Below, piece after piece: positions 39,879 to 40,379 of a DNA stretch of 64,000 bases. The stretch is from sequence record PQ014731.1. One strand, given 5' to 3'. This DNA is from Escherichia phage VB-EcoM-WM. Both the position numbers and the translations under genes were made by a program. A model generated the notes under the pieces. That model saw only the letters and a list, made by a program, of their open reading frames with translations. It was not told the DNA's origin and did no database searches. Positions within the stretch are counted from its first letter, which is position 1; each line of letters opens with the position of its first letter.

Positions 39879-40379
39879 GTGAAAATTAAAATCTTTGCTA
39901 TTATTTTGAGCGCATTTTTATCGCTGCCTGTTGTTGCAGCACCAAAACAAAAAGTATATCACACCTGCAAGCCATCAGATACTAAGGAAAACATTCTAGC
40001 ATGCAATATCTACAGGGAAGCTAGAGGAGATGGCACGATGGGTATGCTGGCATCTGGGTTTGCCACCCTAAACAGGAAATCTCATCCCAAATACCCGGAC
40101 ACTATAAGAAAGATTGTCTACCAACCTAATCAGTTTTCGTGGACAACCTACGGCAAAACTTTTAAGGTGACAGAAAAAGATTCATGGGATCACGCTAAAA
40201 GTCTTGCAAAGATGCTTCTAAAGGTCTATAATAACAACCATGTTGCATACATGGCTATGGATATAACAGGTGGAGCAACACACTACCATACGACCAAAGT
40301 ACGACCGAAATGGGCAAAAAAGATGCAGAGGACAGCTCAATTCGGGAGTCATATCTACTACAAGGAGCGCAATAAATGA
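39879..40379 (+). CDS. SleB-like cell wall hydrolase with N-terminal signal peptide
   Basis: Track ORF 39759 runs through the terminator; GTG at 39879 follows RBS ggag; signal peptide KIKIFAIILSAFLSLPVVAAP; blocks ACNIYREARGDGTMGMLASGFATLNR and YQPNQFSWTT match SleB-type hydrolases. Confidence 0.6.
   Translation: MKIKIFAIILSAFLSLPVVAAPKQKVYHTCKPSDTKENILACNIYREARGDGTMGMLASGFATLNRKSHPKYPDTIRKIVYQPNQFSWTTYGKTFKVTEKDSWDHAKSLAKMLLKVYNNNHVAYMAMDITGGATHYHTTKVRPKWAKKMQRTAQFGSHIYYKERNK

Follow-up and report, generated by a model that had tools for sequence, protein, structure and literature searches.

Escherichia phage VB-EcoM-WM encodes, immediately upstream of rIIA, a SleB-like cell wall hydrolase that is not the main endolysin of the phage; it is a second, accessory wall enzyme. 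We consider it moderately probable that this hydrolase acts in the periplasm as an accessory enzyme of the lytic transglycosylase type, made at low level from an early/replication operon. The protein itself is already known, as an annotated member of a well-conserved family. Added here are the gene layout across genera, the positional conservation of a hairpin ahead of the gene, the GTG and TTG start codons, and an invariant cysteine pair; at the level of sequence, these together suggest an exported enzyme that is kept low within the early/replication operon.

The window (the whole stretch of DNA analyzed, 64,000 nt of record PQ014731.1) is from a Vequintavirus (rV5-like). The region is ~96% identical to JEP1, MaxTheCat and some 120 other Vequintavirus genomes, and is colinear with MaxTheCat 18.2-78.3 kb. 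Baseplate and tail-fiber genes extend to ~28.8 kb, followed by a minus-strand block to ~35.6 kb that includes an Srd-like anti-sigma factor, and, from 35.7 kb, by a plus-strand block with the genes for a fucosyltransferase, a MoxR-like ATPase, a 126-aa protein, the hydrolase, rIIA, rIIB, a helicase, a primase-helicase and DNA polymerase. The hydrolase gene shares strand and tight packing with the helicase, primase and DNA polymerase genes, and lies ~11 kb downstream of the last tail-fiber gene. An earlier note on this DNA had located the gene directly behind a terminator hairpin, among early genes and far from the structural genes; each of these placements holds, with "early" judged from gene order and promoter-like motifs. 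Feature coordinates are collected in Table 1.

Table 1. Features at and around the hydrolase gene (window coordinates)
Feature	Position	Strand	Description	Basis
Sigma-70-like promoter match, upstream	38031-38059	+	TTGACA-17-TATTAT, 11/12; best upstream match	Consensus match only
126-aa acidic protein gene (rV5 gp3, PHROG 12370)	39448-39828	+	Upstream of hairpin	
Terminator-like hairpin and T-run	39842-39869	+	TCCCCGC-TTCG-GCGGGGA, then TTTTCTATTT	Sequence scan and folding
Shine-Dalgarno GGAG	39870-39873	+	5 nt ahead of GTG	Sequence reading
Hydrolase CDS	39879-40379	+	166 aa; GTG start at 39879, TGA stop at 40377-40379	
Predicted Sec signal peptide	39879-39938	+	Residues 1-20, MKIK / IFAIILSAFLSLP / VVA	Rule-based reading
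SleB-type catalytic domain	39960-40367	+	Residues ~28-163	Foldseek and alignments
Cys30 codon	39966-39968	+		Clade alignment
Cys42 codon	40002-40004	+		Clade alignment
Glu47 codon	40017-40019	+	Predicted catalytic residue	Alignment to SleB motif
Sigma-70-like promoter match, internal	40204-40232	+	TTGCAA-17-TATAAT; inside hydrolase ORF	Consensus match only
rIIA	40376-42358	+	Start overlaps hydrolase stop	
rIIB	42369-43574	+	Follows rIIA	

The hydrolase is the same gene as rV5 gp2 and its orthologs MaxTheCat bas57_0064, CB7_83 and CR3_gp087, found here in a slightly different Vequintavirus isolate. It is 98% identical to rV5 gp2, which likewise has 166 aa and lies between gp3 and rIIA, with no material difference. 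The rV5 GenBank record calls the protein "SleB", and the gene table of the rV5 paper lists it as "cell wall hydrolase". SleB-like homologs have been noted in all Vequintavirinae genera in the CB7 paper of 2020, which also reports a signal peptide for the CB7 homolog CB7_83, toxicity of that homolog on expression in E. coli (data not shown), and, as candidate class II holin, a 65-aa protein with two transmembrane domains (TMDs) whose gene overlaps the SleB-like gene (PMC7344957). Other genome papers mention "two endolysins" in such phages. Apart from the unpublished toxicity remark for CB7, our literature search found no experiment on the hydrolase or a close ortholog, nor any SleB-like lysin of a Gram-negative phage that had been studied biochemically.

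The enzyme core is real and, from its sequence and structural model, looks active. Its score, fold and catalytic residue all place the protein in the Hydrolase_2 family, upholding the SleB-type assignment of the earlier note. Pfam PF07486 (Hydrolase_2) matches residues 51-161 with 69.4 bits (cutoff 27; E=4.3e-19) over profile positions 2-100 of 100, and PHROG 938, "endolysin", matches with E=5.6e-27. The sole matches in a PDB sequence search were to the catalytic domain of Bacillus SleB, 4f55 and 4fet. An AlphaFold (AF2) model built from a 67-sequence alignment reached pLDDT 95 (48 from the single sequence). When this model was run against PDB with Foldseek, 4fet (E=3e-5, TM 0.78-0.79) and 4f55 (E=4e-5, TM 0.75) were returned, TM values being normalized to target length, and beyond these two nothing had E below 2.5; in the viral Foldseek library many "SleB cell wall hydrolase" models matched. 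In the alignment Glu47 matches the first Glu in YGESRGE, the SleB motif; that Glu is the catalytic residue of the SleB structure papers. It is invariant (67/67 aligned sequences; 160/160 aligned residues, with 2 gaps) and is set in a conserved motif, Y-x-E-x-R-G-[ED]; R66 is likewise invariant in the family alignments. The number of homologs depended on the search, a word-indexed one giving 5 proteins and an exhaustive search of representatives 10,989.

By its profile score the hydrolase does not count as an equivalog of SleB, the spore enzyme: TIGR02869, the NCBIfam SleB equivalog, gives 47.3 bits where the cutoff is 236.5, and matches at profile positions 83-201 only. Bacillus SleB (4f55, 4fet; TIGR02869), a germination-specific lytic transglycosylase, shares with it the catalytic fold and the E-x-R-G-[ED] motif; however, identity is only ~24%, and the hydrolase lacks the N-terminal peptidoglycan-binding domain and has a cysteine pair that SleB lacks. 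Bacillus SleB needs muramic-delta-lactam, which is absent from E. coli peptidoglycan, and the E. coli host makes no cortex. The muramic-delta-lactam cortex cut by SleB cannot be the substrate of the hydrolase, whose activity on ordinary peptidoglycan we assume by analogy, from the use of the family in Gram-negative phages.

The N-terminus, MKIK-IFAIILSAFLSLP-VVA followed by AP, reads by rule as a Sec signal peptide with n/h/c regions: a basic n-region leads into a core of 13-15 residues that is strongly hydrophobic, then come a helix-breaking Pro and, after it, a V-x-A site with small residues at -3 and -1. The signal peptide had been called cleavable-looking in the earlier note, and this reading agrees. 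Signal peptidase would most likely cut between A20 and A21, because Pro22 at +1 disfavors a cut between A21 and P22. Signal-peptide-like N-termini occur in 137 of 155 family representatives, and in the AF2 model of the hydrolase residues 3-14 form a detached helix. We rejected a SAR endolysin reading, in the manner of P1 Lyz or phage 21 R, on the strength of the V-x-A site after Pro and of the strongly hydrophobic h-region, in which 10 of 17 residues are I/L/F/V and just 6 are A/S. Two SAR-like relatives (L078 and L086) are clearly unlike the hydrolase at the N-terminus, and distant phage relatives have Gly/Ala/Ser/Thr-rich N-termini that lack a cleavage site.

The cysteines are in keeping with export. 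C30 and C42 are invariant in a 20-sequence alignment of the clade, and the wider family has two mutually exclusive pairs, C30+C42 in 29 sequences and C39+C77 in 100; both pairs are missing from Bacillus SleB, which is made in the cytoplasm. This pattern is as expected for periplasmic disulfides, and is compatible with a location in the periplasm.

The hairpin ahead of the gene has a 7-bp stem with 6 G-C pairs and a TTCG loop, and abuts the ribosome-binding site; its centroid is at -14.7 kcal/mol, and the entire 44-nt segment has z=-1.98. It would terminate the transcript of the gene for the 126-aa acidic protein. Because the hairpin and T-run end directly at the ribosome-binding site of the hydrolase, there is no room for a promoter after them. 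Other Vequintavirinae genera and IMG/VR relatives have a GC-rich stem and T-run 17-27 nt ahead of the start codon. The stems of these relatives differ in sequence (AGCCCC/GGGGCT, AAGCCCCT/AGGGGCTT, AAAGGCTCAG/CTGGGCCTTT, AAAGGGGC/GCCCCTTT) while their position is kept, so that the hairpin is conserved as a structure; the TTTGGAG junction is also found again in relatives. Most orthologs start with GTG or TTG, TTG being the start in most; non-ATG starts account for 7/71 annotated CDS (10%) in the MaxTheCat stretch. We infer that the level of the hydrolase is held low by terminator read-through and the weak start codon. A low dose would suit an enzyme that is exported and whose over-production is toxic.

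Gene order and promoter-like motifs indicate that the hydrolase is probably made with early or middle genes. The nearest candidate source of transcripts entering the hairpin is the best upstream sigma-70-like match (Table 1). Further upstream are another match at 36.87 kb and a divergent pair at 35.65-35.72 kb; divergent promoters at the corresponding place were proposed by the rV5 authors. TGGTAAAATA, a late-type motif, occurs more often in the window than expected (18 matches vs. 5.9), but not once on the plus strand at 25.2-46.1 kb. From the putative promoter inside the hydrolase ORF, rIIA could be transcribed on its own, without the hydrolase gene. Our literature search found no transcriptome of any Vequintavirinae phage.

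The main lysis genes of rV5-like phages lie elsewhere. Their lambda-R-type lysozyme has 156 aa and is distinct from the hydrolase; one such enzyme, LysECP26, has been purified and lysed 29/29 Gram-negative strains (PMC9728275). The MaxTheCat lysozyme gene, bas57_0207, is at 124555-125025 of that genome on the minus strand, beside the DNA ligase gene and outside the part covered by the window, and its product matches PHROG 90, "endolysin". The spanins adjoin the large terminase gene (TerL), and the candidate holin (rV5 gp129, bas57_0168), of 78 aa with two TMDs and a basic tail, is encoded at yet another site. All lysis genes are thus scattered in this lineage, as they are in T4, and therefore the placement of the hydrolase gene is not peculiar. 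The hydrolase would work in the manner of a secretory lysin, but as the endolysin of a lysis cassette it is out of context, with no adjoining membrane ORF, no late-promoter motif, and a separate, proven lysozyme. The earlier note had suggested a signal-peptide endolysin with unusual genomic placement: a signal peptide is predicted here too, the role of main endolysin is weakened by the LysECP26-type lysozyme and by the holin candidate and spanins elsewhere, and the oddity of placement disappears.

We examined the neighborhood of the gene across genera, and found that one layout is kept: hairpin, SleB-like gene, an optional small membrane protein, rIIA, rIIB. Genes upstream of the hairpin vary between genera. 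Henunavirus and Seunavirus have the hydrolase followed by a two-TMD protein of 57-76 aa and then by rIIA, rIIB and helicase; in Certrevirus a two-TMD protein of 62 aa and, after it, a small ORF stand between hydrolase and helicase, and rIIA/rIIB are missing. The small membrane gene is absent from Vequintavirus, where the hydrolase is coupled directly to rIIA, its TGA overlapping the rIIA ATG as ATGA at 40376-40379. Stephanstirmvirinae have the hydrolase with no rII gene adjoining. In a distant contig (L065) the order hydrolase, small ORF, rIIA, rIIB is found with a hydrolase that is 33% identical and an rIIA that is 42% identical over the N-terminal half. We also considered the 126-aa acidic protein as a conserved partner or inhibitor of the hydrolase, and rejected it: only in Vequintavirus is it found beside the hydrolase, and T5 and CR3 have unrelated genes at the upstream position.

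The small membrane protein of the other genera raises the question of a lysis cassette. No small membrane ORF adjoins the hydrolase in the window, in keeping with the statement of the earlier note that no holin is adjacent; a search across the window for a hidden two-TMD ORF gave one only, an implausible one on the wrong strand at 33707-34084. The membrane proteins that follow the hydrolase in the sister genera have no significant similarity to each other or to the candidate holin of Vequintavirus. Small membrane ORFs beside SleB-like genes were not enriched (4/33 vs. a background of 56/408) when 33 non-redundant IMG/VR loci were surveyed crudely. Reading the hydrolase and membrane gene as an "ancestral lysis cassette" is therefore suggestive only, and the argument is limited to some Vequintavirinae genera.

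The role that we favor for the hydrolase would run as follows. The protein would be exported by Sec and its signal peptide of 20-21 residues removed, freeing the SleB/Hydrolase_2-fold domain into the periplasm, where a Cys30-Cys42 disulfide would probably form. With Glu47 as catalytic acid, and by analogy with SleB, the mature enzyme would use lytic transglycosylase chemistry to cut glycan strands of the host sacculus. Its gene would head the module of hairpin, hydrolase, small membrane protein (in some genera), rIIA and rIIB within a sigma-70-type early/replication unit, from which output appears to be deliberately low, through read-through of the terminator-like hairpin and a GTG start (TTG in most orthologs). 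The resulting accessory, holin-independent muralytic activity would condition or weaken the wall from the periplasm, and so contribute to lysis.

An early, non-lytic role, of which the earlier note had offered wall remodeling and superinfection exclusion as examples, is unlikely in our view, whether in remodeling of the sacculus, in protection against superinfection or lysis from without, or in partnership with RIIA/RIIB. The order SleB-like gene, (small ORF), rIIA, rIIB, kept even in the distant contig, argues for such a role, as do the stop/start overlap with its translational coupling to rIIA, the location of the gene within the early block, and the retention of a signal-peptide SleB-like gene in the early region of T5-like phages. 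Its whole basis is synteny, however, and the synteny has exceptions: Certrevirus has the hydrolase and no rIIA/rIIB, and the hydrolase of Stephanstirmvirinae has no adjacent rII gene. We know of no superinfection-exclusion mechanism that employs a lytic transglycosylase, which also counts against it.

Muralytic domains that Sec exports without need of a large-hole holin are known, in the secretory endolysin Lys44 of Oenococcus phage fOg44 and in the SAR endolysins P1 Lyz and phage 21 R. The hydrolase could by this precedent be a primary or co-equal secretory endolysin of the Lys44 type, pre-exported and kept inactive in the energized envelope until a holin or pinholin brings down the membrane potential. 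This seems to us quite unlikely: unlike fOg44 Lys44, P1 Lyz and phage 21 R, the hydrolase has no adjoining holin, sits in an early operon and coexists with a separate soluble endolysin, a lysozyme of proven muralytic activity. Vequintavirus has lost the adjoining membrane gene, and the hydrolase stop overlaps rIIA instead; the early/replication unit in which the gene lies has no late-type promoter motif ahead of it; and a low abundance is suggested by the weak start codon and by the terminator ahead of the gene. The case for a secretory endolysin is better in relatives. PHROG 938 is itself labeled "endolysin", and the CR3, pEp_SNUABM_01 and EC152 orthologs are directly followed by a 57-76-aa two-TMD protein, one of them with a charged C-terminus, such a protein being the one proposed as class II holin by the CB7 authors (PMC7344957). 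SleB-like proteins of signal-peptide or SAR type look like the endolysin in further phages and in IMG/VR loci: in Vibrio phage CHOED a signal-peptide version comes just after two small, holin-like membrane proteins, the version in Pakpunavirus MAG1 has a signal anchor, and those of several marine contigs are SAR-like. From these sequences, the family looks elsewhere like a working secretory endolysin.

It is also conceivable, if very doubtful, that hairpin, GTG/TTG start, secreted lytic transglycosylase, (membrane protein), rIIA and rIIB make up one functional unit, in which a throttled early enzyme and the RII proteins act together on the envelope and not in terminal lysis. The purpose of such a unit would be conditioning of the sacculus, a block to superinfection, or evasion of envelope-sensing defenses.

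A virion-associated lysin, piercing the wall during DNA injection, is hardly credible. In its favor are the peptidoglycan hydrolase nature of the protein and the presence of Hydrolase_2 domains in some very large (>1000 aa) phage proteins; against it, the protein has a predicted Sec signal peptide, its gene is outside the structural module and in the replication block, gp2 is absent among the virion proteins named in the proteomics text of the rV5 paper, and the baseplate already has gp5-like and gp25-like candidates. Just as hard to credit is an inactive, decaying remnant or chance ORF, a reading that conservation effectively refutes: the gene is under strong purifying selection (dN/dS 0.04 relative to the MaxTheCat ortholog, with 14 nucleotide and 2 amino-acid differences), the catalytic Glu is invariant, and this is a core gene of the Vequintavirinae, found in 115 phage records at 95-99% protein identity.

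As an ordinary accessory gene, the hydrolase gene is of modest importance. If the hydrolase is a holin-independent lysin or an early wall-remodeling factor, it would refine models of Gram-negative lysis control, and the enzybiotic toolbox would gain a muralytic enzyme that is naturally exported. The conserved hairpin and weak start would exemplify how a phage doses a lethal enzyme. Should hydrolase and RII proteins indeed form a single unit, the long enigmatic RII proteins would gain a periplasmic enzymatic partner.

Many large virulent coliphages, of the rV5-like, phi92-like and T5-like groups, keep a second, secreted SleB-type hydrolase apart from the holin/endolysin pair. The T5-like version (T5_ev219 YP_013605805, AKFV33 ORF81) resembles the VB-EcoM-WM hydrolase in having a signal peptide and a Hydrolase_2 domain and in its early-region gene, which is likewise apart from the phage's own holin/endolysin pair; it differs in having ~40% domain identity, the Cys39/Cys77 pair and no rII neighbors.

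We found the hairpin that precedes the SleB-like gene to be a conserved feature of the locus. A GC-rich hairpin followed by a T-run also lies 5′ of each SleB-like start in the related loci L014-L050, and across Vequintavirinae genera its position, against the ribosome-binding site, is conserved with stem sequences that are different and mutually complementary. The space between hairpin and gene is too short for a promoter. In the minimum-free-energy fold of window 39826-39876, the sequence at the upstream gene's stop codon (TAATTTC) makes a weak helix with the Shine-Dalgarno region (GGAGTTA), forming an outer stem around the hairpin, and a similar outer stem is found in the Vequintavirinae phage CR3. 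According to this predicted fold the outer stem could mask the SleB-like gene's ribosome-binding site still further, although the helix is weak.

The start codon was also examined. The majority of SleB-like orthologues begin with GTG or TTG, against just 7 of the 71 annotated CDS in the stretch from the close relative MaxTheCat, which suggests that weak translation initiation of this predicted exported enzyme is under selection.

Two cysteine pairs, mutually exclusive, occur in the secreted SleB-like family: C30+C42 marks the clade of the window protein, and T5-like members, along with many others, carry C39+C77. Neither pair is present in Bacillus SleB. The arrangement looks like two disulfides placed independently.

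The order SleB-like gene, small ORF, rIIA, rIIB is found in a 74-kb viral contig (IMGVR_UViG_3300044259_000056) whose SleB-like protein is only 33% identical; the link between hydrolase and rII genes therefore outlasts most sequence similarity. Sixteen unannotated GenBank records that bear the label "Campylobacter phage" and give C. jejuni as host matched the 6-kb query, among them MG065655, MG065658, MG065661 and MG065682, each about 95% identical over the entire query; these records may be mislabelled, or may represent carried-over E. coli Vequintaviruses.

Features of the SleB-like locus and of other regions (L-numbers, loci of related phages or viral contigs)
Feature	Location	Strand	Remark
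GC-rich hairpin and T-run	window 39842-39878		abuts ribosome-binding site of SleB-like gene
Hairpin counterparts	L005:3895-3949; L006:3421-3473; L008:3456-3503
Non-ATG SleB-like starts	window 39879; L006:3471; L008:3501; L007:3483
Further GTG/TTG SleB-like starts	L018, L021, L025, L026, L032-L034, L036, L040, L041
Cys30 and Cys42 codons	window 39966-39968 and 40002-40004
SleB-like gene to rIIB, distant contig	L065:3845-7601
TGGTAAAATA sites	window 3440-25169; also 46123, 46363, 47265, 58200	mainly + (3440-25169)
N6/N4 DNA methyltransferase, 442 aa	window 45344-46672	+	Pfam PF01555, E=9e-42
DNA polymerase ORF	window 50827-54225	+	in-frame insert ~52839-53836, ~1 kb relative to MaxTheCat
168-aa ORF, HNH-like motif NHKDGNKYNN	window 54360-54866	+	inside neighbouring insert ~54284-54928
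Candidate holin and neighbour	L003:17198-17989 (MaxTheCat 102297-103088)		outside window

The rV5 "late promoter-like" motif TGGTAAAATA, counted with up to one mismatch, occurs 18 times in the window (5.9 expected), clustering ahead of the structural genes; the plus strand from 25.2 to 46.1 kb has no occurrence.

The methyltransferase gene fills a 1.3-kb insertion and is absent at the same position in MaxTheCat. The insert in the DNA polymerase starts with CYSGDTQILTEKGW and looks like a candidate intein; Pfam searches gave no match for this insert or for the 168-aa ORF. In MaxTheCat, the DNA polymerase is annotated as a join of two pieces.

Next to the candidate holin (78 aa, two transmembrane domains, basic tail) is a 174-aa protein annotated "putative glycosidase", which had no Pfam match and falls in a PHROG of unknown function; its gene might be an additional lysis-related gene.
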